A stretch of 61,312 nt of DNA, from the IMG/VR virus record IMGVR_UViG_3300011115_000316, positions 1-61,312 of that record, one strand, 5' to 3'. The translations under genes and the position numbers were made by a program. The stretch is from a virus. Its lineage: Duplodnaviria > Caudoviricetes. The notes under the pieces are model-generated. The model made no database searches. It was not told the DNA's origin and saw only the letters and a list, made by a program, of their open reading frames with translations. This document shows, piece by piece, positions 15,293-31,239 of the stretch (the first letter of the stretch is position 1; every line of letters starts with the position of its first letter).

Positions 15293-15479
15293 CGGCTCTT
15301 TCTGCTTTTTCAGCAAGGTCAATTAAATAACGCTCTGCAAGAGCTAGACCTTGAATAGTCCCGCAGAGTTTTTGGTACTCTTCAAAATTGCGACAGCTTC
15401 CCCCCGCCAAGTCATCGGCGTAGTTGTTCATGTCGGTACGAATCTTTTCGCGCAGTACGCGTGTGAAGGCTTGGATCAT
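15285..15479 (-). CDS. Hypothetical protein
   Basis: ATGA overlap; EEYQKLCG.IQGL. Confidence 0.7.
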   Translation of the reverse strand: MIQAFTRVLREKIRTDMNNYADDLAGGSCRNFEEYQKLCGTIQGLALAERYLIDLAEKAERADE

Positions 15480-18025: not shown

Positions 18026-19558
18026 TTAATAGTATGCGGCTTGTCTGCTGCGCCTAAATATCTTAGGCTCGTCTTGGCGGTCTGATTTTAGCGATATGAA
18101 CCCGCCGCGCCTATAGCGGCTCAGCGCCATTGTCACGCAGTCAACGTAGTCGTCATGCTCACCATTGGGAAATTCGGCGCACTCATTGATAACCTCGTGC
18201 GCCCACCGGAAGTCTGGGGCCCACACGACACCATCAAAAAGCAAGGGAGATACGGAGTTCACCCGCGCACGTTTATCATTTGACACCCCCGCAGCCCCCC
18301 GCGACGGGCTGTACTCTTCAACGCCAATGTCCATCTGCCGCAGTTCTTGAATGAGCGGAGCCCCGGCGGCTTTCTTCTCCACCAGCAAACACTCCGGCTC
18401 CCATTCCTTGTACTGCTCGAGCACGATCTCTTTAAGCTGTGGGAACTCCCACCGGTCTCTGATGGCGTTGAGCAGCATCAACTCGTGCCGATGGCTCTCT
18501 TCGTTGTACCAGACGCCCCACGTTGTGCACGCGCTGTAGTCGTTGTTGTTCTTGGTCTCGTGCGCGGTATCCCAAACCTGTAGGACAAACTCCATGTCAG
18601 GCGGATCTTCCTTCTCCCATATCTTCCACCAGTTGCGTTTAAGCAACGCCCCCTCTTCGCTGGTGGGCTCCTGCATGTACTGCGCAGACCAGTACTGTGG
18701 CTGCATGCCGGCCTTCTTTGCCAGAAGCTGGTCTATCGGCCACTGTGCGGGCCACAGGCTCTTGCCTGATGGGAGGATGGCTGGGAACCGGATCTCTTGC
18801 CACGGCAGTGCTGCGGGGTTCTGCTCTGCCCATGCCAGTGCGCGTCCGATGGGGTCTTTCTTCCCCCAGCGGGTTCCTATCATGACTATGCGCCCACCGG
18901 GCATCAAGCGCTGCATGGGGCCTACCTGCATGTACGTCCATGCCGTATCGAACGTAGCCTCCGGGTTGGCAAGCACCGCCTGCTCGGACACCAAGTCGTC
19001 AGCAATCAGTAAGTGTGCGCCGTGGCCGGCCACGTTAGCGCCAATGCCGATGGCAAGGTACTTGCCCCCAGAAGTCGTTGCCCAGTTGTCTGAGGCGGAC
19101 TTGTCCCGGGACACGATGGTGTGGGGAAAGATCTCGCGGTACTTGTCCGTGTCGATCATGTTGCGCACCTTGCGCCCAAAGTCCGCAGACAACGTAGAGG
19201 TGTGCGTTGCCATCATGATGTGATGGTGCGGGTGGTGGCCTAGGTACCAACCAATGAACAAGTACGCGATGGTCTCGGACTTCCCGAAGCGTGGGGGCAT
19301 ACTGACCGTCAGGCGTAACTCGTCGCCATTCTTGACGTTGTGCAGGGGGCCCCTCATATATCTATGGTGCGGGCCTTCCTTCCAGTCCGTGTACATGTAC
19401 GCGCAGAACTTCAGGAAATCGTCCCGGCACTCCTGCAACTTCTTTTTCTTCTCGAGCAACTCTAGCTCATCGAGCAGGGCAAGTTTCTCTGCCGCCGGCA
19501 TGTTCGGCAAGTCTGCAAGCAAGCGGGCAACACCTTCAGTCGTCAGTTCCTCAAGCAT
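18026..19558 (-). CDS. terL: Terminase large subunit
   Basis: Walker A MPPRFGKS, Walker B IADD, GTRW, nuclease WDTA and FPNGEHDDYVD. Confidence 0.95.
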   Translation of the reverse strand: MLEELTTEGVARLLADLPNMPAAEKLALLDELELLEKKKKLQECRDDFLKFCAYMYTDWKEGPHHRYMRGPLHNVKNGDELRLTVSMPPRFGKSETIAYLFIGWYLGHHPHHHIMMATHTSTLSADFGRKVRNMIDTDKYREIFPHTIVSRDKSASDNWATTSGGKYLAIGIGANVAGHGAHLLIADDLVSEQAVLANPEATFDTAWTYMQVGPMQRLMPGGRIVMIGTRWGKKDPIGRALAWAEQNPAALPWQEIRFPAILPSGKSLWPAQWPIDQLLAKKAGMQPQYWSAQYMQEPTSEEGALLKRNWWKIWEKEDPPDMEFVLQVWDTAHETKNNNDYSACTTWGVWYNEESHRHELMLLNAIRDRWEFPQLKEIVLEQYKEWEPECLLVEKKAAGAPLIQELRQMDIGVEEYSPSRGAAGVSNDKRARVNSVSPLLFDGVVWAPDFRWAHEVINECAEFPNGEHDDYVDCVTMALSRYRRGGFISLKSDRQDEPKIFRRSRQAAYY

Positions 19559-20216
19559 TGCGGCGCTCGGCTACTATGCCGATTTCGGCATCCAGCGTCA
19601 TACCTTCGCCCTCGTTGCTGGCCTCTGGGATAACGAACGGTGCGGGCTCTGATACTGGCGTCACATCGGTGACAGCCGCTCCGTCTGCCGGCGACAAGAA
19701 CTTGGACAGGCGTAGGCGCAGGCGCTTCTCAACATCCTCTTCGCTGGCGTCGATCTTGGTAACTTCGACCCTGTCGGTGAACAGCGCCACCTCTGTGACA
19801 CTGCCAAGCATCTGCAAGGCTTTTAGGCGTATGCGGGCGTCGGGGTGTTTGGTTTCTTCAAGTATCTTTGAGACTGTGTAGCCCCGGAGTTCCTTGGCCT
19901 GATTGACAAATTCCCAATCGTAGGCGGTCAGCATGCCGGCCAAATGCTGCACTGCAGCAGGCGTCTTTATGGTGGCAAGCGCTGTGCGCTGCTTGGCGTT
20001 GTCTGTGTCGAAGTTCAGCGCGGTAAAGGCTTCCCGGGCGGCTGTCTGCTGGCTCTTGGCGTCGAGGTCCGCATCGGAGGGCACGCCTAGCTTCTCCAAC
20101 CAATCGCTGGTTCCAACTTGAGCGTCAAGGATGTCTGCTGGCGCAGCCTTCTCAAAAGAAATAAAGTCTCCGACCCCCGCAGGATCGGGCGTGAACCCAA
20201 CAAGATTGTCGAACAT
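19551..20216 (-). CDS. Terminase small subunit (putative)
   Basis: GGAGG RBS before ATG at 20216; RLKALQMLG motif; directly upstream of terL. Confidence 0.6.
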   Translation of the reverse strand: MFDNLVGFTPDPAGVGDFISFEKAAPADILDAQVGTSDWLEKLGVPSDADLDAKSQQTAAREAFTALNFDTDNAKQRTALATIKTPAAVQHLAGMLTAYDWEFVNQAKELRGYTVSKILEETKHPDARIRLKALQMLGSVTEVALFTDRVEVTKIDASEEDVEKRLRLRLSKFLSPADGAAVTDVTPVSEPAPFVIPEASNEGEGMTLDAEIGIVAERRNA

Positions 20217-20331
20217 GAACCTCCGCGTAAGCGTCAATATGTGCCGCCTCGTATTCGTAGTGTACACTCATCTCGTTATTTGTTTCTCCTTGATGGAGCG
20301 CGAAGCTCCTTATCGCGCCATAGCGCTCCTT

Positions 20332-20356
20332 AGCCCACCTTGGTGGGCTTTTTTTT
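20332..20356 (+). terminator. Rho-independent terminator
   Basis: AGCCCACC-TT-GGTGGGCT plus T run. Confidence 0.75.
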
Positions 20357-20437
20357 GTTTGACAGAAAACCTCTGGTAAATTTTTATAGGGGGTGGGGGG
20401 TGTGTTGCAGAAAAGTAGCCGGGGGGTGCAGTGGCAG

Positions 20438-20517
20438 TGTTTTTACAAGATGCCGGGGATTTGCTACAAAAAGCATAGCAAAGGCACTATGTTTTTACAA
20501 GATGCCGGGGATTTGCT
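20438..20517. repeat. 28-bp exact direct repeat, two copies
   Basis: TGTTTTTACAAGATGCCGGGGATTTGCT at 20438 and 20490. Confidence 0.95.
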
Positions 20518-20625
20518 TGGAACAGTGTTATTGCCGCGCTGCCACAGCATCAATGCCAAGGGGTGATAGGGGTACGGTGGGGGTCGCAGAATCGAATGCC
20601 ACAGATACCGTGGAAAAGGTGCATA

Positions 20626-20634
20626 TGCTACAAT
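20626..20634 (+). promoter_or_regulatory. Extended -10 early promoter (putative)
   Basis: TG-c-TACAAT about 80 nt upstream of the first early gene. Confidence 0.45.
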
Positions 20635-20714
20635 GCAGTCACTCAGTAGGCATTCGGTCTACCGGGTATCAACCCGGGAGAACGTGTTCTCCCAAGAAAC
20701 TAGGAGTTTTCACC

Positions 20715-21095
20715 ATGACAACCTTCCTCACCATCAATGCCAAGGCCTACACTGTGTTTGCAAAGATTGCCAAGCACATCGAAGCAAAAAGCCTTGGTTG
20801 GCAACTAACGCTGGCATCCGCCGGCATTCTCCCGGGCGACTATCGCCCGTTTGCAATTGCATACGTAGCCGAGGCCGGCGTGGCCCCTACGATGGGCCAA
20901 CGTGGCCTGACGTTCCAGAAGGACTCGAAGGAAGATTCACGAGTCAAGTATCTGGTGGCTGTCCTTACGGGCGCTGCCCAAGAGAAAGCTGCCGCCCGGT
21001 CTCTGTCCGCCGTGTCCGATCTGGACAAGGCGCTGAAGGCTTTCGGCAAGCTGTCCGCCGCCGACAAGAAAGCTTTCATGGCTAAGGCCAAGTGA
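20715..21095 (+). CDS. Hypothetical early protein
   Basis: TAGGAG RBS before ATG at 20715; palindrome A on both sides. Confidence 0.75.
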   Translation: MTTFLTINAKAYTVFAKIAKHIEAKSLGWQLTLASAGILPGDYRPFAIAYVAEAGVAPTMGQRGLTFQKDSKEDSRVKYLVAVLTGAAQEKAAARSLSAVSDLDKALKAFGKLSAADKKAFMAKAK

Positions 21096-21168
21096 GAACG
21101 ACTCGGGGGAACGGTTCCCCCGAGTTTGGCAGTGAATTCCCCCGTGCAATCCTGCGCGTGGGGATCTT

Positions 21169-21232
21169 TGCGGGGTTTCAGCCTGAAGCTTTGCCGCGTG
21201 AGCGGCGGGCTTTGGAGTGCAACCGCACTACT
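21169..21232 (+). ncRNA. Candidate structured RNA motif D, copy 1
   Basis: Shares CAGCCTG and TGGAGTGCAACCGCACTACT with copy 2; variable stem closed by GTGA loop. Confidence 0.5.
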
Positions 21233-21291
21233 TGGGGGAACGGTTCTCCCGAGTTTCTCTGCCCTGATTCAAAGGGATTGTTTGGCGTTCA

Positions 21292-21312
21292 AGGCGCACA
21301 TCTGCGCTACGC
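21292..21312 (+). repeat. 21-nt repeat C (second copy 26996-27016)
   Basis: AGGCGCACATCTGCGCTACGC, exact match, both copies just upstream of an AGGAG RBS. Confidence 0.9.
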
Positions 21313-21334
21313 TCTTACTTTTTAGGAGTACAGC

Positions 21335-21874
21335 ATGATTACCGCCATGCACGGCATCGGCGCGTATCGTGGACAGCGCAACCCGATCGCGCTGAGTCGC
21401 GCGCTCTCCGTCGCAATGTCCGGCGTGGAAATATGCGCATCCGATAAAGCTATCGGCGCGTTTGGGATCGTTATTTTGGGCGAGTCTCGGACCGTTTGGG
21501 ATCGCGATGTGTGGTCGGATTTGGATGCCAACGGCAATCGTATCGCCCATTACTTGGGCAATTGCATGGCTCCAAAATCGCAATGCGATTTTGAGAATTT
21601 TGCCGACGCCGCGCGCGAAAACGGCACCCTATACTGCGAGGTATGGATGCGTGCATCGGTGCTGCGCGCCGTGTGGATCAAACAATGGGCCGATGCGCGG
21701 ACAACGGCAGCTGCCCGGATTATCGCGCGCAACAGGCATGTGCCACTGTTAACAATCCGGGGACGCACCCGCATTGGAGAGGTGCTCGATGCACGGTTAG
21801 ATAGCGTAATTTTGCGCGAGGACACACACGGTACCAGCATGGGCGCTGCACTCATTGCAGCACTCAAGAAGTAA
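21335..21874 (+). CDS. Hypothetical cassette protein
   Basis: TAGGAG RBS; stop TAA fused to palindrome A. Confidence 0.75.
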   Translation: MITAMHGIGAYRGQRNPIALSRALSVAMSGVEICASDKAIGAFGIVILGESRTVWDRDVWSDLDANGNRIAHYLGNCMAPKSQCDFENFADAARENGTLYCEVWMRASVLRAVWIKQWADARTTAAARIIARNRHVPLLTIRGRTRIGEVLDARLDSVILREDTHGTSMGAALIAALKK

Positions 21875-21953
21875 CTGGGGGGAACGGTTCTCCCGAGTTT
21901 TGACAACGGGTTAGCTGTGTGCCCTCTCACGCAGCAATTTCTAGGAGCTAATC

Positions 21954-22307
21954 GTGAACAGAAACAAACTGATAGTCCTTGCCGCCCACATCCGGCACAT
22001 CCTCGCACCCGGGTGCGAGGTGGGGGACGTGTGTATCTCGGACATGGGGGTGTCGATAAAACTCGACACCATCAAAGGTCGGCCAGACGCCGACCTTGTC
22101 ACGCTGCATGCGTGGCTGGATGAAGAGCACCCCGATATCTGGCACTTGCGTGCCACACGTGCAGATGGGACGACGCAGGCACGCTGGAGGTGCCAAGCGG
22201 GTGATCTCAGCGAAGACAGGGACTACGAGTCCGATCACAGGGCCGTCTGGCTCTGCGCCACAGTCAACGGATGGGAGGGCGCGTTCTGGCTGCGCCCCAT
22301 CGAATAA
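21954..22307 (+). CDS. Hypothetical cassette protein
   Basis: TAGGAG RBS, GTG start; stop fused to palindrome A. Confidence 0.7.
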   Translation: MNRNKLIVLAAHIRHILAPGCEVGDVCISDMGVSIKLDTIKGRPDADLVTLHAWLDEEHPDIWHLRATRADGTTQARWRCQAGDLSEDRDYESDHRAVWLCATVNGWEGAFWLRPIE

Positions 22308-22385
22308 CTCGGGAGAACGGTTCCCCCGACAAATCCGTGCCGGTGCGGTTCACCGGTGGTTAGTTAGCTATTTTAGGAGTACATC

Positions 22386-23102
22386 ATGCCCGGAGCAATC
22401 CTTTATCAAGGCCCGTCGCTGTTCGACGGCAAGCCAATCGTGGTGATTGCCATATGGCAATCAGCAAACTCGAAGACTGGCGACATGCTGCAGACCTACA
22501 TCATGCGCTCAGACATTGACCCGCGAGACGCCAACAAGTACGGCGAGGACGAGTCAATCTGCGGCCAGTGCCAGCACCGGGGTACGCCGACTCTTGACCC
22601 CACCAAAGCCCTCGCAGAAGAGCGGACGTGCTATGTGAACATAGGCCAAGGGCCGCTGATCGTGTTCAACGAGTTTATCGCTGGCAAGTATCCGGACTAC
22701 GCAAACACGGGAGATCGCCGTATGACAGGCGCAGGGCGCAATGTGCGCATCGGCACCTATGGCGACGGTGCTGCGGCACCCGACTACGTGTGGGACGACC
22801 TGCTGTTCGGGGCCAAGGGCCACACAGCCTACAGCCACAACGGTGGCGACCCGCAGCGCTACATGGTCAGTGCCGACACACTGGCGCAGGCGACGGTGGC
22901 TTGGTCTAACGGCTACCGCACGTTCAGGGTAGTGCGCAGCGTGGCAGAGATCGACCGCAAGCACGAGGCGCTGTGCCCTGCGAGCAAAGAGGCAGGCTAC
23001 AAGGCGACATGCACCACCTGTCTGCTGTGCGCCGGCACATCGTTGCGGGCCAAGAGCATCGCCATACCCGTGCACGGCAGCGGCGCTGTGCACTTCGAGT
23101 AA
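22386..23102 (+). CDS. Cys-rich phage protein, putative metal/Fe-S binding (Gp88-like)
   Basis: N.KTG, CGQC...CY, RIGTYGD, CPA...CTTCLLC. Confidence 0.6.
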   Translation: MPGAILYQGPSLFDGKPIVVIAIWQSANSKTGDMLQTYIMRSDIDPRDANKYGEDESICGQCQHRGTPTLDPTKALAEERTCYVNIGQGPLIVFNEFIAGKYPDYANTGDRRMTGAGRNVRIGTYGDGAAAPDYVWDDLLFGAKGHTAYSHNGGDPQRYMVSADTLAQATVAWSNGYRTFRVVRSVAEIDRKHEALCPASKEAGYKATCTTCLLCAGTSLRAKSIAIPVHGSGAVHFE

Positions 23103-23179
23103 GTAACTCGGGAGTCGTTCCGAGAAACCGTGCCGGTGCGGTTCACCGGCGGTTAGTTAGCTATTTTAGGAGCTACATC

Positions 23180-23209
23180 ATGGATCAAATCAAGGGTATC
23201 GGCTACTGA
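23180..23209 (+). other. 9-codon minigene MDQIKGIGY behind a full repeat RBS
   Basis: TTTTAGGAGctacatcATG...TGA. Confidence 0.5.
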
Positions 23210-23236
23210 CGCCGGATGGATATCTGGCGTAAGGTA

Positions 23237-23291
23237 GCGGTTCCAGCCTGTAGGCCCGTGACAGGGGCCTATGGAGTGCAACCGCACTACT
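23237..23291 (+). ncRNA. Candidate structured RNA motif D, copy 2
   Basis: GCGGTT/AACCGC, CCA/TGG and TAGGCCC/GGGCCTA stems. Confidence 0.5.
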
Positions 23292-23339
23292 CGGGGGAAC
23301 GGTTCTCCCGACTTTTCGGGGCATTTTGTGACTGGGCAG

Positions 23340-23690
23340 TCTATTTAGTGACTAAAAAATTCTACCCACCGTTTGCCCCCCCTGTGCGTAGGTAGCGATC
23401 ACTCAAAAAAGCGTTAGGAATCAATAACATTTTTGCTCTACTACTACTACTAACCTATTTAAGATATATATATATAAGGAGAAATTCTCTTTTGTTTTTT
23501 CTTTCTCGGGAGAACCGTTCCCCCCAGTTGAAGAAAAAAGAAAAAAGAAAACTAATCTTTTGGTAAGTGAAGATAGTCTGAAAATCGATGGTATTTGCTG
23601 CCGGTATTTGCTAAGTCGTTGATTTTAAAGGAAACGACCCCGACACTTACCCCTGTAACCTGACCGTGACCGCTGGGTAGTTTAGAAAGC
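23340..23690. other. AT-rich non-coding region, candidate replication origin
   Basis: (CTA)n, (TA)n and A/T tracts; IHF consensus match at 23612-23624 on the minus strand. Confidence 0.45.
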
Positions 23691-23726
23691 GTGTGTTATG
23701 ATTACGCTCTTTTTCATGAGGTACCT

Positions 23727-24545
23727 ATGCGCGACGAAAACTACATCGACTATCACGAGACCTTTCCCACGCGCTGGGAGGTCACTGCCGCCTACGCCAT
23801 CTGTTGCGCCAAGTGCCACGAGACCAAACTCGCCAAGCACTTCCGCCGCACGTTGACCCGAGCGCAGGCTGCGGCCCGAGGGTACCTTGGCATGAGCAAT
23901 CAGGACGATCAGCCCAAGAAATTTAAGGGGGATCGACTCGCCACCGTCGAGTCGAAGTTCTGCGCCAAGTGCCAGCCGGGGCATTACAAGCCCAACGCTA
24001 TGACGATACCCGAGATGTATCTAGCCGCCTACGATGGCAAGGCATCGTTGGCCCGGGTCAATATCGACGTAGCGCTCAAGCGCAAGAAGGCAAGCGCCAA
24101 GATTAGCGCTGCCGTGGCAAACCGATGGGACAAGTGGAAAGCCGCACCGTGGGGACATGTGAGGGCTCGCTTAAGCGAGGAGTTGTTGATACTGACCCGG
24201 CGCATCAGCTACCACAACAAAAAGAAAGCACCCGCTGTTCTGATGGGCGCATTGACCGCGCTGCAGGCTGCGCTGACAGTGCTGCGAGCCCGGTGCACGC
24301 TCAATGCGCGGATACAGGCCCCGCTCGACCCCGCCACAACGTGGGAAGACCTACTTGGAACGCCTGTCATGGGCAACCTGCAGACGCTGTGGTCTGAGGT
24401 TCCGGCGGACGTTCTCATGCGCATGAAGAACGTGCCCCTGCTGCTCAACAAGGCGCAGCCGCTCGTCATGGACGGGTACGTAGCGCCGAACCAAGGGAGC
24501 ATAGACAGACTGAACATTGTCAAGGGGCATACGTACAAAGAATAA
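23727..24545 (+). CDS. Hypothetical protein with CxxC pairs
   Basis: TG-t-TATGAT at 23694-23702, GAGG RBS, CAKC twice; stop fused to palindrome A. Confidence 0.7.
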   Translation: MRDENYIDYHETFPTRWEVTAAYAICCAKCHETKLAKHFRRTLTRAQAAARGYLGMSNQDDQPKKFKGDRLATVESKFCAKCQPGHYKPNAMTIPEMYLAAYDGKASLARVNIDVALKRKKASAKISAAVANRWDKWKAAPWGHVRARLSEELLILTRRISYHNKKKAPAVLMGALTALQAALTVLRARCTLNARIQAPLDPATTWEDLLGTPVMGNLQTLWSEVPADVLMRMKNVPLLLNKAQPLVMDGYVAPNQGSIDRLNIVKGHTYKE

Positions 24546-24625
24546 CTCGGGAGAACGGTTCTCCCGACAAATCCGTGCCGGTGCGGTTCACCGGTGGTTA
24601 GTTAGCTAGTTTAGGAGTTTTCATC

Positions 24626-25087
24626 ATGTCAATATTCACCAAGCAAGCCGCCAAGGCAGCACGTAACGTCCGCGCTGAGATCAAGCGCACGACTGACCGC
24701 GTGGTGCTGCTCAAGCACCCGGCGGTAAAGGCAGCGTTCGAGGCATTCCCCCCCGCCCAGCGCAAGTACGTGGAGATATCGCTGTCCATGTACGGGGGCA
24801 CGGTCTACATCAGCACGACGATGCGCGATCTGGCATCGTTCAAGGTGCCCAAGTTGACCCGCGTACTCGAGCGCTTCGTGGGCGACGAGTGGAAGGTGCA
24901 GGTCAACGAGTACACGGACGACGCGCCCAACAAGGACTTCCGTTTCGAGCGCCAAGTGGGCGATTTGTCACTCAGCGTAGCCATCTACGCATACGTGAAG
25001 AGCGACAGCCCCCTGTGTCGCATCGTCGTGACAGGCGTGACCGAGCGTGTCGTGCGCGAGGAAACCAGAGCAATCGTCTGCGCTTAA
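24626..25087 (+). CDS. Hypothetical cassette protein
   Basis: RBS from repeat B. Confidence 0.75.
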   Translation: MSIFTKQAAKAARNVRAEIKRTTDRVVLLKHPAVKAAFEAFPPAQRKYVEISLSMYGGTVYISTTMRDLASFKVPKLTRVLERFVGDEWKVQVNEYTDDAPNKDFRFERQVGDLSLSVAIYAYVKSDSPLCRIVVTGVTERVVREETRAIVCA

Positions 25088-25142
25088 AGGAGAACAACCC
25101 GTGCCGGTGCGGTTCACCGGTAGTTAACTGGAGAATGAAACC

Positions 25143-25415
25143 ATGAAAACAATCACTTTTGACTGCCAAGTCGGCATTTACGACAATTGCGAGTACACGG
25201 CTCGCGTATACACCGACAAGATCATTGTCGTGTGCCCATACATCAAGTGGGACGGCAACTCTGGTGGTTATGCCGAGCGCAAGATTGCGATCCGAAATTT
25301 GGCGACGGTCGCCGCCGTATTACGGGACTTGGCCGACGACTGCGAGTCGTCGGCATGGGGCCGGATCGGGCGCGCCATTGACGATGGTATTTTGTCGGGC
25401 GCGGATTACTCATGA
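25143..25415 (+). CDS. Hypothetical cassette protein
   Basis: Follows a truncated repeat B with GGAG. Confidence 0.7.
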   Translation: MKTITFDCQVGIYDNCEYTARVYTDKIIVVCPYIKWDGNSGGYAERKIAIRNLATVAAVLRDLADDCESSAWGRIGRAIDDGILSGADYS

Positions 25416-25583
25416 GTCACCACCCGCAACAGGGAGATCGAGAAACCAACCGCCGCTAAAGCAGCGGCCATGATGAAAGCCACAACCACCTAAAAAAATC
25501 CCCACAGGTTTCTGTTAGCGGTCAGGAATCTGTGGTATTCTCGTTACCGCGTTCTTTCTTATTAACTTTTTTGGAGTATTTAA

Positions 25584-26549
25584 ATGGCACACGAACTTAG
25601 CATCAAGCAAGACGGTCAAGTCGAATTCGCATACCTCGAGCGGGACGGCCTGCCGTGGCACGGTCTCGGCCAAGCGATGCCTATGGGGGCGAGCATCGAG
25701 GAGTGGCGCAAGCAGTCGGGTATGGACTGGCGCATCCAGCGTAGCAAGGTGCGCTACGCTGTCTCCCGCGACGAGGGCGCTGTGTTCGAGGAGATGGCTG
25801 ACCAGCACGTACTGTTCCGCTCGGACAGCAAGAAGGCGCTCGGGCTCGTGTCCGAGAAGTACCAGGTTGTGCAGCCTAGCGAGGTGATCGAGTTCTTCCG
25901 CGACATTGCCCGGGCAGGCGGGCTGGAGCTTAGTGCAGCGGGCACCATCTACGGGGGCCGGCGGTTCTGGGCAACGGCCAAGATAGGGGAGGCAAGCCCA
26001 ACCAGTGTGACGGACAAGATCGGCGGGTACTTGCTGATCAGCACCAGCGCTGATGGTTCACTGGCAACTGAGGTGAGGCGCACGACGGTACGTACGGTGT
26101 GCTCCAACACGCTGGCAATGGCGATGAAGGATGCGCCGGCCAGCATGAAGGTAACGCACAAGTCGGTGTTCGACCCCGAGGCCGTGAAGGAATTCATGGG
26201 GCTCAACGAGGCGGCGTGGGCAGCGTTCAAGCATCAGGTGGTGCGGCTGGCGAACAAGCCAGTGGTCCTCGAGGCGGCAGAGAAGATGACCGCAGACATC
26301 CTCGGAGGTGGCGACAAGGTGTACGCCACGGCGGGGTACAACAAGATCCTCGACCTGTTCCAAGGGATGGCGAAGGGGGCGCTCCTTGAGGGCGTGCAGG
26401 GTACGGCGTGGGGCTACATCAACGCCGTGACGGAGTACGCGGATTGGTTCTCTCGGGCACGTACGCATGAGAACCGCTTCGTGTCATCGCAGTGGGGCCC
26501 GGGCGCTGACCTCAAGCAGCGTGCACTGGACGCTGTGCTGGCTGTGTAA
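25584..26549 (+). CDS. DUF932-family phage/plasmid protein
   Basis: PWHGLG, Y.VVQ, GGRR.WA, RTVCSNTL, TAWG..NAVTEY.D. Confidence 0.85.
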   Translation: MAHELSIKQDGQVEFAYLERDGLPWHGLGQAMPMGASIEEWRKQSGMDWRIQRSKVRYAVSRDEGAVFEEMADQHVLFRSDSKKALGLVSEKYQVVQPSEVIEFFRDIARAGGLELSAAGTIYGGRRFWATAKIGEASPTSVTDKIGGYLLISTSADGSLATEVRRTTVRTVCSNTLAMAMKDAPASMKVTHKSVFDPEAVKEFMGLNEAAWAAFKHQVVRLANKPVVLEAAEKMTADILGGGDKVYATAGYNKILDLFQGMAKGALLEGVQGTAWGYINAVTEYADWFSRARTHENRFVSSQWGPGADLKQRALDAVLAV

Positions 26550-26624
26550 TTAACTGGGGGTTCCGACAAATCCGTGCCGGTGCGGTTCACCGGTGGTTAG
26601 TTAGCTAGTTTAGGAGTTTTCAAG

Positions 26625-26996
26625 ATGATACTAAATTTAACGCAGCATCCGGCAAGCCCGGAGCAACTCTCTGCCGGTGTGGTGGACCTGCCCACCGAAA
26701 TCCGCGAAGCAGTGCAGGCACTGCTTACCGTCAACACCCTGCCAACCCGGCAGGAGATAGAGGCGCGGTGCGCCGACATCGCCATGCTGGCGGCAACGGC
26801 ATTTGACGCGCACCCGGTTAGCGCAATGATCGGCGGAGCACCCTGGATGATGAGCTGCCTGGAGGGGGCAGTGCTTGATCAGGGTATCCAGCCCGTGTAT
26901 GCATTCTCAGTGCGTGAGTCGGTCGAGCAGCCGCAGCCCGATGGCAGCGTGCGCAAAATCAACGTGTTTCGGCACGTTGGGTTTGTGTCCGCATGA
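26625..26996 (+). CDS. Csx20-like small protein, candidate ring nuclease
   Basis: NLTQH...EQ, AMIGG, GIQPVYAFSVRE...DGSVRKINVFRHVGF resembles the recalled Csx20 pattern. Confidence 0.55.
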   Translation: MILNLTQHPASPEQLSAGVVDLPTEIREAVQALLTVNTLPTRQEIEARCADIAMLAATAFDAHPVSAMIGGAPWMMSCLEGAVLDQGIQPVYAFSVRESVEQPQPDGSVRKINVFRHVGFVSA

Positions 26997-27043
26997 GGCG
27001 CACATCTGCGCTACGCCAGAGGAAGTAGTACAGGAGAAAGCGA

Positions 27044-27226
27044 ATGCAGATAAATGGAAAGAACCTCGAGGTCTTGCGCGTGGCACTTGAGCGCGCGCTG
27101 GCCGACGTACACACCGAGCGCCAGCACATCCCACCAGCCGATCAGGGTGACCTGATCGAGGAGCGCATCGCGTACCAAAACCTGCTGATCCGCGTGCGGG
27201 CAGCCATCGAGAGGGAGTCGAAATGA
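27044..27226 (+). CDS. Hypothetical protein
   Basis: AGGAG RBS. Confidence 0.65.
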   Translation: MQINGKNLEVLRVALERALADVHTERQHIPPADQGDLIEERIAYQNLLIRVRAAIERESK

Positions 27227-27417
27227 ACCAGCTAATTACCATCTTCCGGAACTTGTTCCGCAAGCCAACACCGTTGGAAGTCATCGCAACGGAGCTTGCC
27301 GAGGCACACCTCGATCGACTGCAGGCCGAGACAGCCGTTGAGTATGCGCAGTCGGTGGTGGCGTACAACGTAGCTCGGATTGATCGGCTTAACAGGCGTC
27401 GGGAGGAATACAAATGA
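27223..27417 (+). CDS. Hypothetical protein
   Basis: ATGA overlaps at both ends. Confidence 0.7.
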   Translation: MNQLITIFRNLFRKPTPLEVIATELAEAHLDRLQAETAVEYAQSVVAYNVARIDRLNRRREEYK

Positions 27418-27839
27418 CCGGCTTTGACTCAAAGCGCCAAGCATCGCTCGACACGCTCGACCACCTCCCCTATCAGGGGCGTGAGTCAAGGCCCGAGGAG
27501 CTTGCCCAACAGAACCCTTGGCTAGAAGCAATTGACAACGCCTTGATCTGCACAATGATGGGGACGGCCGAGAGTTTTTCTTGCGCAGACGAAGCGCTGG
27601 ACGCACTGATCAAATGGCACGTAGCCACTGCTCTCGACCCGGCGGTGTCGGCGGCTGCACAAGTCCTGATTGATCGTGGGGCAGCAGTGGCCGAGCCGCT
27701 GACGGATGATGAACTGCGCGAATGCTTTACCAGCACAAACACAGCCGAACCACTGTCGGAAGGATGGCCGGGTCTGGAGCGTTTTGCCCGGGCCATTGAA
27801 GCCGCGCATGACATCGGCATCAAGGGAAGCAAGACATGA
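27414..27839 (+). CDS. Hypothetical protein
   Basis: ATGA overlaps; PLTDDE...FARAIEAAH.I module. Confidence 0.7.
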   Translation: MTGFDSKRQASLDTLDHLPYQGRESRPEELAQQNPWLEAIDNALICTMMGTAESFSCADEALDALIKWHVATALDPAVSAAAQVLIDRGAAVAEPLTDDELRECFTSTNTAEPLSEGWPGLERFARAIEAAHDIGIKGSKT

Positions 27840-28384
27840 AAACAACACTGAATCAAATCAGGGCGCACAGCCCGTGCCCAGATGGCTGGCGCAAGCTGCT
27901 GGCGCATCTCGGCAAGTCGCAGGCCGACGACGAGCCGCTGGCAATCACAACCATTCTTGATAGCAACGGGTTGGACGATGCACTGTGGTGCCTGCGTGCA
28001 GTTAAGGGCCATGACAGGGAGATCAGACTCTACGCAGTGTGGTGCGCAAGACAAGTGCAACATTTGATGACTGACCCGCGCAGCATTGCGGCTCTGGATG
28101 TTGCGGAGCGGTTTGCAACGGGTGCGGCCACGCAAGTTGAACTGACAGCGGCATGGGACGAAACAAGGGCTGCGACAGGGTTTGCGGCAGAGGATGCGGC
28201 AAGGGCTACGGCAAGGTTTGCGGCAGAGGATGCGGCAGGGGCTGCGGCAGGGGTTGCGGCATGGGCTACGGCAGAGGATGCGGCAAGGGCTACGGCATGG
28301 GCTACGGCAGGGGTTGAGGCAGGGGTTGCGGCAAGGGATGCACAGAAAATAAAGTTGCGTGAAATCTGTGGGGGCGCAAAATGA
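27836..28384 (+). CDS. Hypothetical protein with Ala-rich repeats
   Basis: PC.DGW.KLL...SNGLDDALW; AA.xA repeats encoded by short tandem units. Confidence 0.75.
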   Translation: MKTTLNQIRAHSPCPDGWRKLLAHLGKSQADDEPLAITTILDSNGLDDALWCLRAVKGHDREIRLYAVWCARQVQHLMTDPRSIAALDVAERFATGAATQVELTAAWDETRAATGFAAEDAARATARFAAEDAAGAAAGVAAWATAEDAARATAWATAGVEAGVAARDAQKIKLREICGGAK

Positions 28385-28509
28385 CGATGCGCCAACGAAG
28401 GAAACAGTTTTGGTGGACATGGCACATGGAGGGCGCTCCACCGTACCCGAGTTCGCCCCGGTACTTTGAGCCGGGCGTGGGCAGGATCAAACATCAAGGA
28501 AAGACATGA
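28381..28509 (+). CDS. Small hypothetical protein (42 aa)
   Basis: ATGA overlaps with both neighbours; below the ORF-track cut-off. Confidence 0.5.
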   Translation: MTMRQRRKQFWWTWHMEGAPPYPSSPRYFEPGVGRIKHQGKT

Positions 28510-28733
28510 CCAACCTAATCAGGCTACCGCCAGCTACCACAATGACCGCACAACAGGCGCTGGAGTCTGCGCTGGTAGATGCGGAAGCCAAGCACCTACA
28601 AGATGTGCTGATCTGTGGCTACGACGAGGACGGGAACCTGTACATCAGGTCGTCCCGGCTTAACTGCGCCGAAGCATTTTTTCTTGCAAACAAAGCTGCC
28701 GTCTGGGCGCAACACGGAGGGACGTTTGAATGA
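28506..28733 (+). CDS. Hypothetical protein
   Basis: AAGGA RBS, ATGA overlap. Confidence 0.7.
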   Translation: MTNLIRLPPATTMTAQQALESALVDAEAKHLQDVLICGYDEDGNLYIRSSRLNCAEAFFLANKAAVWAQHGGTFE

Positions 28734-28999
28734 CTGACATCACTGAACGCTTGAGGCGCATCTACGTGAGCGAAGGCGCGAACTACGTGCAAGAGGCGGC
28801 AGACTTGATTGACAAGCTGCGTGCAGAGCGGGATCGGTTGGTAAACGACGTTCACTCTTGCCACAACAACTGCACTCGCGCAGGGTGCGTGAATAGGGTG
28901 TTGCGGGAAGCGCTGGAAAGCATCAAACACGACAGCGATTTTTTCAGCGTAAGCCATTTGCGGAGTCTGGCGAAAATTGCACTGGAGAAAACGAAATGA
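28730..28999 (+). CDS. Hypothetical protein
   Basis: DITERLR...EAADLI..LR pattern. Confidence 0.7.
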   Translation: MTDITERLRRIYVSEGANYVQEAADLIDKLRAERDRLVNDVHSCHNNCTRAGCVNRVLREALESIKHDSDFFSVSHLRSLAKIALEKTK

Positions 29000-29694
29000 C
29001 AACGCAAGCAATCAGGGACGCCATGAGTCTGGTTGTTGATGGAGGACTAGACCCATGCGAGCTACAGTTTTTTGACATTTCCAACGCAATGGATGACCAT
29101 GCGTTTTATGATCCGCTGATACAGTGCCGACCACCGTTTGACAAGTGCCTTGTGGTGTACAGAGGGCCATCCAGAAACCACGCTGCTTACGACATGATGA
29201 TGTTTGTCAATGGCACAGACCCGGAGGAAGGCGTTGTTGTCACGCTCTGGAAAGGCCCCTATGGGCAAAGACCCACACACTACCCAATGCTTGTTTACAT
29301 CGTAGACGGTGATATGGTGCGGTATGGGCCAGCAGATGAAAATGAACAGATGGACGAGGATGTTGCGAAAGCAATTCTTGGCTTGCTATCCAAGTGGTAC
29401 GAATCACTGTCTAGACCTTGCGAGTTGCACACTCCAACGTTACCCAAAACGTGGACAAACCAGCGCAAGATTGCAATGGGTAAAACGCCCACTTACGACT
29501 GGCATACGGTCATTATTGGCCCGAAACAGTCCAAGTCAGAGCCACAAGGCGGCTCCCATGCATCACCAAGATTGCACGACAGACGGGGCCACCTCCGCAG
29601 ACTACGCAACGGTAAAAACGTATGGGTTCTGCCCTGCAAGGTTGGCAATGCGTCCCTTGGGAGTGTGTTTAAAGATTACGAGGTGGCAGCATGA
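28996..29694 (+). CDS. Hypothetical protein
   Basis: C-terminal HASPRLH.RRGH.R...WV...VG motif. Confidence 0.75.
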   Translation: MTTQAIRDAMSLVVDGGLDPCELQFFDISNAMDDHAFYDPLIQCRPPFDKCLVVYRGPSRNHAAYDMMMFVNGTDPEEGVVVTLWKGPYGQRPTHYPMLVYIVDGDMVRYGPADENEQMDEDVAKAILGLLSKWYESLSRPCELHTPTLPKTWTNQRKIAMGKTPTYDWHTVIIGPKQSKSEPQGGSHASPRLHDRRGHLRRLRNGKNVWVLPCKVGNASLGSVFKDYEVAA

Positions 29695-29960
29695 GTGGAG
29701 GATCATTTAATTACGCATACGCACGTATGCATGAGTTTGCCGACGATCTGCGGTACATGCTGTCTCAGCAGGGGCAAGTAGTCGCTGGCTGGAAAGTAGG
29801 CACTTGGGAGCCGCAGGTAGCAGCAAAACTTGCGGAGATTGCTGCGCTGGTTGACTACGCAGCGAAGCTGGCAAAGGAAGCCGAATGGCTGTACTCTGGC
29901 GACACCGGCGAGGATACTTTTATGGGACGGGTAAAAAAGATTGAGGAGAAGAAACCATGA
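29691..29960 (+). CDS. Hypothetical protein
   Basis: MSGGSFNY...EW..SGD.GED. Confidence 0.75.
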   Translation: MSGGSFNYAYARMHEFADDLRYMLSQQGQVVAGWKVGTWEPQVAAKLAEIAALVDYAAKLAKEAEWLYSGDTGEDTFMGRVKKIEEKKP

Positions 29961-30160
29961 GTGCATTCGGGCTAATTGCCAGCAACCTGACTGCCACAAA
30001 AGACATGAACAACCTGCAAAGTAACATGAACCGAAAGCGGAAACTGTGTTGGGCTTGCCAGAAAGATAAATCTCCGTTGGGTGGGCACCAGTCCCTGCAA
30101 CCGGGCTTCTTCAAGTTTGTTTGCAAGGACTGCGTAAAACTGAAGGAAAAGAAGCCATGA
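29957..30160 (+). CDS. Small Zn-finger protein
   Basis: CWAC and CKDC. Confidence 0.7.
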   Translation: MSAFGLIASNLTATKDMNNLQSNMNRKRKLCWACQKDKSPLGGHQSLQPGFFKFVCKDCVKLKEKKP

Positions 30161-30237
30161 GCCGCTTTCGCCTGCTTGCATCGCACCTGGAATACTTGCT
30201 AGCAAGAGGCGCAGACTACACAAATAAAGGAATCGAA

Positions 30238-30384
30238 ATGAATATGCGAGAAAGAATCCGGCATCTTGCCGAGCAAGACGGAATCACGCTTGAAGAAGCG
30301 GAAGATATCCTCCTAGACGCCGCAGAGTCGGAGAGCGACCGCCGGCGGGATGAAGCAGTTGAAGCAAAGGAGAAGAAAGCATGA
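30238..30384 (+). CDS. Small acidic protein (in-frame ATG at 30157 also possible)
   Basis: AAGGA RBS. Confidence 0.55.
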   Translation: MNMRERIRHLAEQDGITLEEAEDILLDAAESESDRRRDEAVEAKEKKA

Positions 30385-30578
30385 GCTACGAGATATACGA
30401 TATCGGAAAGCGTAAACCGTGGTACGAACGCCTTAAGCCGAAACGCCCGTGGGTAGGGCTGACGGATGATGAGATAAAAGAAATCATTGGGGGCTGGGGG
30501 GATACGCCGATCAAGGGCTACACCCGCAAGTTTATCGACCGGCTTGAAGCCAAACTCAAGGAGAAGAATCATGGCTAA
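30381..30578 (+). CDS. Hypothetical protein
   Basis: WVGLTDDEI...EAKLKEKN module. Confidence 0.7.
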   Translation: MSYEIYDIGKRKPWYERLKPKRPWVGLTDDEIKEIIGGWGDTPIKGYTRKFIDRLEAKLKEKNHG

Positions 30579-30768
30579 ACTGCCGTACACATCTGAACTC
30601 ACGGAAGCTAGTATTACACAGGCACTGAAAGAGATTCGGCAGATGCTGGAGCAGTCCAATGAACCGATAAAGCTGAAGCCGACTAAGCTGCTTATTCGAC
30701 CCGCTGACTTGGCCGAGCTTGGCCTGACGGTGGATGATGTAGTGAAGATGATCAGGGACAACCGATGA
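30571..30768 (+). CDS. Hypothetical protein
   Basis: AGGAG RBS. Confidence 0.6.
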   Translation: MAKLPYTSELTEASITQALKEIRQMLEQSNEPIKLKPTKLLIRPADLAELGLTVDDVVKMIRDNR

Positions 30769-30944
30769 AGTGCCCAACGTGCAACAGGTACGCAGAAGTT
30801 TTGGAAACTCGGGCAAACCCGGACGGGGTGCGCCGTCGTTACGAGTGCGCCAACCTGCACAGGTTCACAACCCAAGAAACTTTGATCCCCACTCCGGGGA
30901 TCAGAGAACAAATAGAAAAAGCCAAGCATGATAAAGCCACATAG
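30765..30944 (+). CDS. NrdR-like zinc-ribbon protein (59 aa)
   Basis: MKCPTC...VLETR...RRRYEC...RFTT.E; manual translation. Confidence 0.7.
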   Translation: MKCPTCNRYAEVLETRANPDGVRRRYECANLHRFTTQETLIPTPGIREQIEKAKHDKAT

Positions 30945-31239
30945 AGTTAAGGTCAGCCACGCTGTCCTGACGCAAACGATGCAGCTTTTGATGCAAGGAA
31001 GAGTGACGGCACAACAACTCAGTAGCCATACTGGTGTACACTTGGTCACAGCCCAAGAGTGGCTGCGGGCGCTCAAAGCCGGGGGCGTTATATATGTCAT
31101 GGATTGGCTACCGGACTCGCTTGGGCGAGACGCAACCCCCGTCTATGGCATAGGCAACTTCCCCAACCGGCCTCGGGCCAAGATGACCCGAGCAGAGATA
31201 TCGAAACGATACAGAGAACGACAGAAGGAGAAGCAATGA
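30928..31239 (+). CDS. Putative HTH DNA-binding protein
   Basis: TAQQLSSHTGVHLVTAQEWLRAL. Confidence 0.6.
   Translation: MIKPHRVKVSHAVLTQTMQLLMQGRVTAQQLSSHTGVHLVTAQEWLRALKAGGVIYVMDWLPDSLGRDATPVYGIGNFPNRPRAKMTRAEISKRYRERQKEKQ

Follow-up and report, generated by a model that had tools for sequence, protein, structure and literature searches.

The early region of this uncultured freshwater phage is a hyperplastic early-gene array of a lytic-type phage, in which unrelated genes are joined via a small set of modular linkers. Between nearly all neighbouring genes lies a hairpin sequence belonging to one of a few recurrent types, and we consider these probably to be promoter-less RNA punctuation hairpins, akin to the promoter-early stem-loop (PeSL) cassettes of other phages, that double as homology patches for recombination. 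The window, by which we mean the whole stretch of DNA analyzed, is a record of 61,312 bases, and the best cultured TerL match of the phage (44.6%) is to Pelagibacter phage HTVC027P.

As counted by pattern over the whole record, palindrome A is matched 7 times, against 0.02 expected (attained in none of 100 shuffles), and hairpin B is present in 5 exact copies, against 0.00 expected, thus excluding chance. All of these copies are confined to 20.6-26.6 kb, where they stand after stop codons and ahead of the next ribosome-binding site. The repeat copies listed in the original prediction are all present where it placed them, and at 21872, 22305 and 24543 the TAA stop codon indeed passes directly into the repeat. 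Further A copies were recognized at 23289 and, inverted, at 23505, along with an A-like variant at 20671-20694. The features of the array are as follows.

20671..20694, + strand: A-like palindrome variant with a centre 2 nt longer, in the leader, 20 nt ahead of the first early gene start (repeats D4, I18)
20715..21095, + strand: first early gene, family F3, 126 aa, no known family
21101..21125, + strand: palindrome A, perfect copy, 9 nt past the F3 stop (12-bp stem, -21.1 kcal/mol, z -2.7)
21207..21256, + strand: small hairpin D and palindrome A (A at 21230-21254), repeat D6
21292..21312, + strand: leader hairpin E ahead of the gene at 21335, with an exact second copy at 26996-27016, repeat D17
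21335..21874, + strand: 179-aa gene of this phage only, with A on either side
21873..21936, + strand: palindrome A (21873-21897, starting within the TAA stop) and leader hairpin C (21913-21936)
21954..22307, + strand: gene F6, 117 aa, GTG start, common to L015, L050 and L013
22305..22385, + strand: full linker of TAA, A, CAAAT, hairpin B, L motif and Shine-Dalgarno, repeat D2
22386..23102, + strand: Cys-rich gene F7, 238 aa, phrog_2554, whose position differs from that in four relatives
23104..23179, + strand: linker of short-form hairpin (23106-23124), B, L motif and Shine-Dalgarno
23180..23209, + strand: 9-codon remnant, with its ATG at 23180, of the 75-76-aa gene family F87, internal deletion
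23266..23315, + strand: second copy of hairpin D and palindrome A (A at 23289-23311), D6, 92%
23485..23549, strand '.': inverted A (23505-23529, with C at its centre) that forms the tip of a long T-rich/A-rich palindrome, I2, I23
23727..24545, + strand: gene F9, 272 aa, present in all close relatives
24543..24625, + strand: full linker of TAA, A, B, L motif and Shine-Dalgarno
24626..25087, + strand: gene F10, 153 aa, kept down to a relative at 50% amino acid identity
25095..25142, + strand: B-only linker with a different tail and Shine-Dalgarno
25143..25415, + strand: 90-aa gene, not found in the relatives compared
25584..26549, + strand: DUF932/TIGR03299 gene, 321 aa, DUF932 E 5e-47
26551..26624, + strand: linker of collapsed A remnant, B, L motif and Shine-Dalgarno
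26625..26996, + strand: 123-aa gene with a weak Csx20-like C-terminus, missing here in L013 and L014

Six of the nine cargo proteins have no family match. Among the identities proposed earlier, DUF932 and the Cys-rich protein (7 Cys and two CxxC motifs in the 238 residues of F7) are confirmed, while the Csx20-like gene is a sub-threshold match only (E 5e-7 to NF040559, 30.1 bits vs a cut-off of 70, over just the C-terminal 39 residues). What had been taken for a near-empty slot is the start of an F87 gene, a family intact in five relatives, with the rest deleted here between end points that lie in coding sequence and away from the repeats. As to the linker copies described as eroded, the one at 26551 is truly collapsed, but the one at 23104 is a short-form hairpin that is used throughout some relatives. 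The full linkers at 22305-22385 and 24543-24625 are 97% identical over 79 nt (family D2). The long palindrome at 23485-23549 lies within a low-GC spacer and is kept in relatives, which also possess leader hairpins equivalent to 20671-20694.

The placement of the hairpins is regular. A search of 13 sequences, 8 of which carry A, gave 41 non-identical A contexts. In 14 of these the end of the stop codon lies 3 nt ahead of the A core, and a Shine-Dalgarno with a start follows 19-22 nt downstream in 12 contexts with A alone and 46-62 nt downstream in 10 contexts with A plus a second hairpin; relatives often show A, then TTTTTATT, GGAG and ATG. For B, Shine-Dalgarno and start lie within 19-61 nt in 20 of 21 contexts. 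A appears to act as a single strand with polarity, as suggested by its centre base (28 G, 6 C, 4 T and 3 A among the 41 contexts), by its mismatches (10 G.U vs 4 A.C in copies with a central G, 0 vs 5 in those with a central C) and by its tail: 25 of the 41 contexts have 4 or more T within the 8 nt of the tail, and only 14 have 4 or more A in the mirrored flank upstream. In the B family the loop (CGGYY) and two closing pairs are invariant, and among 20 distinct rows 4 of the 7 stem pairs have changes in both partners. None of 500 shuffles attained the covariation score of B, and, since the alignment rows were picked for forming at least 6 of the 7 pairs, their 100% pairing is partly by construction. 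One example is the orthologous F9-to-F10 junction, at which three different compensated stems are found among relatives. Together these patterns strongly indicate selection on the hairpin structure. A is also much better conserved than the adjoining proteins: 6 A copies are present in a relative whose F3 and F10 have 52% and 50% amino acid identity. The terminator signal in this phage genome is weak: the 8-nt tails of the 7 A copies of the window hold 3, 5, 4, 2, 4, 2 and 2 T, and a simple terminator scan called no A or B hairpin on the sense strand, its sole sense-strand call touching A/B being a small overlapping stem at 23306-23321. A similar hairpin is present in the leader of the first early gene, so that an efficient terminator would block all early expression.

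The form, or 'dialect', of the hairpins varies together with the family to which the first early gene belongs. All nine F3 loci carry long-form hairpins (21 long, 2 short and 1 third-type), and the long form is found in none of 20 F61-type loci (28 short, 69 third-type); at the orthologous junction after F9, with identical flanks, the window phage, L015, L019 and L014 have the long form and L013 and L023 the short one. The leader of F3 or F61 itself bears a hairpin of the matching type. It is therefore a serious possibility, if a doubtful one, that the protein encoded by F3 or F61, the first early gene, binds the hairpins as RNA, or the palindromes as operators in duplex DNA, and would thereby turn the whole array on or off, for example through antitermination, roadblock or translational repression, each dialect matching its own protein. 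Such a factor would be compatible with shuffling at the repeats, and retention of A between proteins only 50% identical agrees with it, as does the same order of helices and strands predicted for F3 and F61. However, the profile comparison of F3 with F61 yields a probability of 0.26%, the F61 model (pLDDT 76) has no solved-structure match at E <= 0.001, the F3 model is poor (pLDDT 59), and the family searches gave no nucleic-acid-binding family. The independent contrasts number two or three only, L015, of the F3 type, holds one short form, and the F3 clades of the F9-F10 tree do not enclose the F61 genomes, so that common descent of the whole early region may still hold.

Cassette-wise variation is readily apparent from alignment with relatives, which bear the same A/B elements with other genes between them. 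Since genes are gained, lost, replaced and relocated between the linkers, neither gene content nor gene order is fixed, fixity being the outcome that the original prediction had named as contrary to it. Homology blocks stop at 21256 (the end of the D and A unit, for 7 relatives), 22328, 23153, 25120 and 26560 (in the linker 26551-26624, for 3 relatives), and begin at 21871 and 22330; within the linker 22305-22385 one block stops at 22328 and another begins at 22331. No homology is found in relatives for 21257-21868, and the gene at 21335-21874 has no relative in IMG/VR. Contigs from four public runs depart from the window at 21127, 21227, 21908, 23248, 23279, 25134 and 26549/26560; X1 may be the sample that yielded the window. 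One example of relocation is F7, which precedes an AT-rich spacer here and follows F10 in L015, L019, L013 and L014. The linkers on its two sides (23104-23179 vs 22331-22385) are identical in 52 of 56 aligned columns, so that F7 is enclosed by 55-56-nt direct repeats, and these may be the footprint of a circle or of an unequal crossover resolved in the linker. The unit of B, L motif and Shine-Dalgarno is present in 4 copies in this phage (48-55 of 57 columns identical). Neither any of the 11 mapped relatives nor any metagenome contig has the L motif, so the unit was copied within this lineage. In a census of B (91 copies in 62 sequences, reduced to 78 non-identical contexts), 30 upstream protein families are joined to 26 downstream ones, F7 is preceded in its 11 contexts by 10 different neighbours, and F10-B is followed by 9 different families; a census of A gives 15 upstream and 22 downstream families over 58 contexts. 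Another example is the DUF932 gene, which shares 91% nucleotide identity with L013 and L014, as opposed to 74-83% for F7, F9 and F10 and 74-79% for the genes neighbouring it, a contrast indicative of a mosaic.

The part played by the repeats in this turnover is less evident. Break-point clusters lie within 8 nt of A/B in 11 of 27 cases, with A/B covering 8.4% of the region (P < 5e-5), but against an intergenic-only null 7 of 19 break points are at A/B vs 33% expected (P = 0.44), and without enrichment over intergenic DNA crossovers in hairpins are not separable from selection for intact genes. One may thus propose that A and B are expression signals only, that genes are exchanged by illegitimate or gene-boundary recombination in which the repeats are uninvolved, and that break points coincide with them through selection for intact genes and intact signals. 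Gene turnover does not need the A/B repeats: the block at 27-31 kb, which is translationally coupled and free of these hairpins, has just 4 gene families in common with the three relatives that reach there and is at least as variable as the array, and the F87 deletion ends within coding sequence. Likewise, the Csx20-like gene has homologues in 36 other viral contigs, and these adjoin neither A nor B, with one exception in L138, a single A-like match with up to 2 mismatches. The idea of a gene-shuffling platform is supported insofar as genes vary between linkers, and is weakened by the lack of a preference of break points for A/B over intergenic DNA and by the variability of the 27-31 kb block. 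We still regard purely regulatory repeats as unlikely, given the direct linker repeats on both sides of F7, the four copies of a lineage-specific unit, the constancy of B between variable flanks over 78 contexts, and the joint at 22328/22331, of which the left part goes with F6 and the right part with F7.

Between the stop codon and the next Shine-Dalgarno, nearly every early gene has one or two hairpins on the sense strand, drawn from a limited set of palindrome A, hairpin B and a few others. If the hairpins are indeed RNA punctuation doubling as homology patches, they would be cis-acting marks working in RNA, possibly as attenuators or terminators, as stabilizers of 3' or 5' ends, or as insulators of translation starts, with no promoter inside; no sigma-70-like promoter was found within the A/B units. 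Because units of 20-80 nt recur in one genome and in co-infecting relatives, they would act as portable homology patches, and homologous recombination between them would delete, insert, replace or relocate genes hairpin-to-hairpin, the cassettes arriving with a stop-side hairpin and a ribosome-binding site already attached. We infer both the role in RNA and the fall of crossovers inside the hairpins. The sole recombination-type candidate found in the phage is a PD-(D/E)XK nuclease, a search for RecT- or ERF-type recombinases having found none.

It is very unlikely that each hairpin is an N4-like promoter for an injected virion RNA polymerase, with one start per gene. The 3-nt loop of A, its position 8-10 nt ahead of the Shine-Dalgarno and also before the first gene, and a 2776-aa protein encoded beside ejection proteins would suit such promoters. 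However, LPD38 is the only domain seen in this protein, a PDB sequence search gave no match at E <= 1, and its Atlas neighbours are clusters of polyvalent proteins (LPD38, LPD39, LPD1); a PF00940 search gave no match, its positive control being silent too. The T-rich tails and the covarying stems of several lengths also fit terminator-like or stability hairpins better. Least tenable is the integron analogy of the original prediction, in which the ~60-nt unit is an attC-like single-stranded site recombined by host IntI or a phage recombinase: the uniform gene orientation, one repeat at the 3' end of each promoter-less gene and the TAAC...GTTAG ends are alike, but neither a tyrosine or serine recombinase nor a Y1 transposase was found in the phage (search controls being positive), a scan of 20.6-27.1 kb for inverse-core/core pairs spaced 40-130 nt apart gave 0 and placed not one single core match within a linker, A and B are also found apart from each other, and next to other hairpins in either order, no Rfam family matched, and the units fold as two independent hairpins (-20.0 and -24.8 kcal/mol), the proposed single long hairpin, when forced (-7.5 and -6.1 kcal/mol), being worse by 12.5 and 18.7. 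Unlike in integrons, exchange here would be explained by homology.

By analogy, the array resembles the PeSL cassettes that are established for T4-like myoviruses (Arbiol et al., 2010, PMC2839356; Comeau et al., 2014, PMC4122927) rather than an integron, and would follow the logic of PeSL without the promoter, in an unrelated phage group. In the first of these accounts, PeSL are described as repeated composite intergenic motifs of hyperplastic early regions, running from stop codon through stem-loop to Shine-Dalgarno and start, which flank indels and replacements between close relatives, and recombination between copies is proposed to excise or insert single genes (PMC2839356). Stop-to-start hairpin linkers that bound gene indels and replacements are thus common to both. 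In contrast to the generic G/C-tract stems of PeSL, the units here fall into two hairpin families of conserved sequence, whose stems covary or are invariant, their form co-varies with the first early gene, and they lack a sigma-70-like promoter.

Conserved hairpins between early genes of one operon are also known from T7, in which RNase III processing hairpins stand between the early genes, and from lambda N/boxB antitermination, in which the hairpin is read by the first early gene product and cognate pairs differ between related phages. Compared to the lambda nut sites, hairpin copies are far more numerous here, and F3 and F61 match no known family. REP elements, associated with RAYT transposases, are likewise short multicopy intergenic palindromes after stop codons, acting on mRNA stability; this phage differs in the lack of a Y1 transposase, and A is not a repeat of any bacterial genome searched, its matches in 596 billion bases being limited to 7 stretches, from unrelated taxa of gut and soil.

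The record (61,312 bases, estimated completeness of 95%) represents a phage for which no close cultured relatives were found: the nearest cultured phages are pelagiphages of the HTVC023P type, with TerL identities of 43-45% (44.6% for the best cultured TerL), and a blastn search of the array region against 50,697 phage records returned four weak matches, all to the DUF932 gene. The public runs compared with the window sequence are labelled as viral and lake-water metagenomes, and no RNA data set was listed among the runs containing it. No tRNA genes were found in the window, which is organized into the following blocks:

15476-18016, leftward: portal gene, structural block
18026-19558, leftward: TerL gene, structural block, which runs leftward from about 20.3 kb
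20.7 to 42.5 kb, rightward: early and replication genes, including a family A DNA polymerase, an SNF2 helicase with an intein, and a DUF927 primase-like protein
42.6-61.1 kb, leftward: second leftward block, encoding ejection proteins and a polyvalent protein of 2776 aa that contains an LPD38 domain

The repeat architecture proposed for the early region in the original prediction is real. Palindrome A (core GGGRGAAC-S-GTTCYCCC, extended to 23-27 nt) is present in the window in 7 copies versus 0.02 expected, and hairpin B (22 nt) in 5 exact copies versus none expected, every copy of either being confined to 20.6-26.6 kb. Perfect G+C-rich hairpins in general number 10 in the 5-kb bin at 20-25 kb, versus 0-3 in all other bins. 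The two full linkers (22305-22385 and 24543-24625) share 97% identity across 79 nt, with A folding into a 9-12-bp stem with a 3-nt loop and B into a 7-bp stem with a 5-nt loop. The proposal that the whole unit may fold into one long imperfect hairpin is strongly disfavoured, as the forced structures reach only -7.5 and -6.1 kcal/mol, versus -20.0 and -24.8 kcal/mol for two hairpins, a cost of 12.5 and 18.7 kcal/mol, with DNA parameters in agreement on both strands. An Rfam scan at E <= 5 produced six weak, unrelated matches, all far below gathering scores.

Relatives for comparison were gathered by scanning IMG/VR with B, A, and the proteins TerL and F9 (the early gene at 23727..24545). Eighty TerL loci were kept; A or B are found in 9 of the 18 at 90% identity or more, and in none of the 62 at 78% or less. 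Among 41 non-identical A contexts, the stop codon of the preceding gene ends 3 nt before the A core in 14, and a Shine-Dalgarno sequence with a start codon follows after 19-22 nt in 12, or after 46-62 nt, past a second hairpin, in 10, with the order A, TTTTTATT, GGAG, ATG recurring in many copies of the relatives. B likewise follows stop codons, with a start codon within 19-61 nt downstream in 20 of 21 contexts. As to the potential role of these elements in transcription, the G+C-rich stem and the short loop expected of an intrinsic terminator are both present in the computed folds of A and B, and the 8-nt tail after A contains at least four T in 25/41 contexts (at least five in 18/41). The tails of the copies in the window are weaker in T (3, 5, 4, 2, 4, 2, and 2 of 8 nt), and a simple terminator scan of the window's sense strand called no A or B hairpin. 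A scan for a sigma-70-like consensus, which may not be the consensus of the host, identified 6 sites at 19500-31000 versus 5.1 expected, none of them in linkers.

The hairpins are selected as single strands. A shows an orientation bias, with G at the centre in 28 of 41 contexts, and its imperfections, read on the centre-G strand, include 10 G.U versus 4 A.C pairs, while the six inverted copies present the mirror image (0 versus 5). In B and its kin the loop CGGYY and the closing pairs are invariant, and the outer stems (GCCGGTG, GCCAGTG, GCCACTG, GGCACTG, and GGGGCTG) are each matched by a compensating 3' arm, both sides being changed in 4 of 7 pairs, a covariation score matched by none of 500 shuffles. 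As the rows of this alignment were chosen for forming at least 6 of the 7 pairs, the percentage paired is partly built in. Evidence independent of that choice comes from the orthologous junction between F9 and the next gene, F10 (24626..25087), which carries B in the window and in the related locus L015, the GGGGCTG stem in five relatives, and the GGCACTG stem in a distant one, G001. The latter also possesses six copies of A, nearly letter-for-letter, even though its F10 protein and that of F3 (the first early gene, 20715..21095) are only 50% and 52% identical to those of the window. A pseudoknot pairing the B loop CGGTT with AACCG in the 5' flank was considered and dropped, because the loop turns to CGGCC while the flank remains unchanged. 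An inverted copy of A is also found in the low-GC spacer at 23330-23726, which contains a TATATATA run and CTA repeats and is kept in relatives upstream of F9; there it caps a T-rich/A-rich palindrome some 65 nt long. This spacer is not a terminator on either strand, and may serve as an origin or contain a promoter.

We now have multiple examples of gene replacement and relocation between the linkers, revealed by comparing plus-strand gene maps and blastn homology blocks, as the original prediction had suggested. One example is the gene at 21335-21874, unique to this phage and encoding a 179-aa protein for which no relatives were found in IMG/VR: homology with seven relatives ends at 21256, the 3' edge of one A copy, and resumes in two relatives at the 5' boundary of the following copy (21871). 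Another example is the Cys-rich gene F7 (22386..23102), which is positioned in the window between F6 (21954..22307) and the AT-rich spacer, but downstream of F10 in L013, L014, L015, and L019. On each side of F7 in the window lies a copy of a unit comprising B, the piece that follows it (L motif), and the Shine-Dalgarno sequence (52 of 56 columns identical between the two copies), and the left joint of the cassette falls at 22328/22331, between A and B. Four copies of this unit are present in the window, and as the L motif is absent from all 11 mapped relatives and had no matches in a scan of metagenome contigs, the unit was copied within this lineage. A third example is the DUF932 gene, 91% identical by blastn to those of L013 and L014, versus only 74-83% for F7, F9, and F10, indicating a separate history for this cassette, which ends at 26560 in a collapsed A. 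Contigs from four public runs, one of which (X1) may be the window's own source sample, depart from the window sequence at 21127, 21227, 21908, 23248, 23279, 25134, and 26549/26560. A joint in X1 connecting 21256 to 23243 was considered as an excision product and is better explained by the co-occurrence of an L021-type relative that has a gene of the F87 family (75-76 aa) in between. What had been described as a near-empty cassette slot turns out to be the first nine codons of an F87 gene (at 23180), the rest having been deleted within the coding sequence. The N-terminus of F7 may itself be modular, as contigs of two runs (X3 and X8) diverge inside the gene at 22473, about 29 codons from its start, and the called open reading frames are longer in L015 and L019 (321 and 311 aa, the start in L015 being perhaps mis-called).

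A wider census extends this picture. A metagenome scan with B yielded 54 contigs which, along with the loci from relatives, provided 91 copies in 62 sequences and 78 non-identical contexts, in which B joins 30 upstream to 26 downstream protein families, remaining constant while the sequence on both its sides varies. In 11 contexts, F7 is preceded by 10 different neighbours, and F10 with its B is followed by nine different families. For A, 58 contexts include 15 upstream and 22 downstream families. Homologues of the Csx20-like gene are encoded in 36 other viral contigs devoid of A and B, save for one A-like match (two mismatches or fewer) in one of them, L138, a point against integron-like capture. 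Two cargo families of the window recur together in an otherwise unrelated viral contig (L148:1800-3061), where a homologue of F7 (about 50% amino acid identity) precedes a Csx20-like gene by some 500 nt.

Some results count against recombination being focused on the hairpins. Of the 27 break-point clusters, 11 are no more than 8 nt away from A or B, elements that occupy 8.4% of the region (P < 5e-5). However, against a null restricted to intergenic DNA, the excess disappears (7 of 19 clusters versus 33% expected; P = 0.44). Insertions, deletions, and replacements between relatives are flanked by A and B, while no enrichment at the repeats over other intergenic DNA is seen. The repeats are also unnecessary for gene turnover, since the region at 27-31 kb, where start and stop codons overlap and hairpins are absent, has only four gene families in common with the three relatives that reach there, and since the F87 deletion occurred within coding sequence. 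The claim of crossovers inside the hairpins is based on the duplication around F7, the unit restricted to this lineage, and the pattern of a constant B with variable flanks. Overall, we consider homologous exchange at regulatory hairpins that lack a promoter to be the most likely mechanism, rather than integron-like capture.

The closest known system is that of the PeSL cassettes. These are described, for T4-like phages, as repeated units in which a stop codon, a stem-loop, and a Shine-Dalgarno sequence with a start codon follow one another; the units flank genes differing between close relatives and can form mini-circles (PMC2839356; PMC4122927). The likeness extends to the repeated composite motif in a variable early region and to the insertions, deletions, and replacements between close relatives flanked by the motifs. 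However, PeSL possess a strong sigma-70-like early promoter, and the units described here do not; the hairpin families here are conserved in sequence, and the phage group is unrelated. The stable stem-loop of a PeSL acts as a terminator or attenuator; here the stems are stable, and the T-rich tails seen in 25 of 41 A contexts are weak in the window. Mini-circles of PeSL can form by recombination of neighbouring motifs; the comparison here relies on contigs. In the parts of the literature covered, PeSL are reported from T4-like phages and one cyanophage, with passing mentions in other phage papers.

The integron analogy originally proposed did not hold up. The absence of an integrase, part of the same proposal, is borne out, with no PF00589 tyrosine recombinase matches at E <= 1 in the 61-kb record (the control was positive in 14/14 genomes), nor any serine recombinase or Y1 transposase (PF01797) matches in the record, with controls positive; an IntI encoded by the host could conceivably act on the array. 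An attC site carries an inverse core and a core, a 7-nt consensus pair, at the two ends of its 57-141 nt. No inverse-core/core pairs at 40-130 nt spacing were found on either strand of 20600-27100 (shuffle mean 0.7), no linker contains even a single core match, and the one long imperfect hairpin with extrahelical bases expected of such a site is lacking. A and B also occur apart and beside other hairpins. REP/RAYT elements do not match either, as both their Y1 (HUH) transposase and the host-wide dispersal of the palindrome are missing. The A pattern occurs in only seven stretches across 185,579 species genomes and, as these lie in unrelated taxa, provides no clue to the host; A is thus no bacterial repeat in this genome set. 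In two Eggerthellaceae assemblies (L100-L106) the pattern occurs five times, perhaps as a terminator-like palindrome, and we judge it unrelated to this phage there.

The form of the hairpin varies with the first early gene, which is either F3 or, in other relatives, a gene designated F61. Examples of the 29 loci are as follows:

Window 20715-21095: first early gene, F3
L013:2818-3252: first early gene, F61-type
L043:8548-8955, minus strand: first early gene, F3 or F61-type

All nine F3 loci carry long, A-type forms (21 long, 2 short, and 1 of a third type), and none of the 20 F61-type loci do (28 short and 69 of the third type). The short form, CGGAAC-NN-GTTCCG, replaces A in the close relatives L013 and L023, and the third form, GGGAC-N4-6-GTCCC with a T-tract, occupies the same positions in relatives with TerL identities of 73-78%. 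In relatives at 51-56%, 0-3 perfect G+C-rich hairpins are present in the 10 kb beside TerL, which may not be the early region. After the F9 stop codon, the flanks TAACT...AGAAACCGTG are identical, while the hairpin is long in the window, L014, L015, and L019; L013 and L023 have the short one. A hairpin of the matching form is also present in the leader of the first early gene itself, F3 or F61.

Common descent of the early region is sufficient to explain this association; the contrasts are few, and in the F9-F10 tree, F61 genomes do not fall inside F3 clades. A 'compatibility code' is a bolder alternative, which we consider improbable. F3 or F61 would be the putative reader of its own hairpin form, long CGGGRGAAC-N-GTTCYCCCG being paired with F3, and short CGGAAC-NN-GTTCCG or GGGAC-N4-6-GTCCC with F61, and it would control the whole array, for example via processive antitermination or timed shut-off, the matching form being proposed to occur after every early gene and in the leader of the reader itself. 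If so, a cassette would be expressed only when bearing the resident dialect, which would explain the genome-wide conversion of hairpins, the retention of A at 50% protein identity, and why the linker and not the gene is the constant part; such a link between protein and hairpin dialect would represent a new early-gene control circuit. F3 and F61 are predicted to have the same succession of elements (three helices, then a beta-hairpin, then long helices), but homology between them was undetected (hhalign probability 0.26%). Neither matched a known family, and a structure search with the F61 model matched no solved structure. Their helix-helix-helix-strand-strand order prompted the idea of a winged helix, which was rejected as unsupported: Foldseek found nothing in the PDB at E <= 0.001 (best E 0.19, TM 0.15), MarR proteins appearing only at E > 1, and the F3 model was of too low quality for such a search (pLDDT 59).

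The old idea of phages exchanging modules at conserved linkers reportedly originates from Botstein's modular theory, and clear examples of linker-based exchange are few outside T4-like phages. Here, a different, uncultured freshwater phage group displays PeSL-type logic in a very clean form, and one 22-nt hairpin linking 30 upstream to 26 downstream families makes it practicable to measure how short regulatory repeats influence the movement of genes. The linkers can also help in locating the accessory early genes of such phages, which may be putative host-takeover or anti-defence genes.

Some additional features of this genome deserve mention. The 2776-aa protein (42647-50977, minus strand) closes the ejection-protein block, its sole recognised domain is LPD38 (residues 2483-2661), its Atlas neighbours are polyvalent-protein clusters, and it matched neither a PHROG nor any PDB sequence. 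An N4-type virion RNA polymerase was considered for this protein, and no polymerase signal was found; the lack of a PF00940 match is uninformative, because the positive control was also silent. The SNF2-type helicase (35112-37547) is split by an intein, with Hint and Intein_splicing domains at residues ~198-486. The gene at 27836-28384 (phrog_18326) contains, at 28112-28363, 13 overlapping copies of a repeat with a 12-nt period (GCGGCAnGGGyT-like), encoding a repetitive Ala/Gly-rich stretch. Between the divergent terminase operon and the early genes, a canonical terminator-like hairpin followed by a run of seven T is present on the plus strand (20332-20349), and no gene that it would terminate is evident. 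At 20438-20517, ahead of the first early gene, two exact 28-nt direct repeats spaced by 52 nt each contain TTTACA, and these may be early promoters or operator sites.
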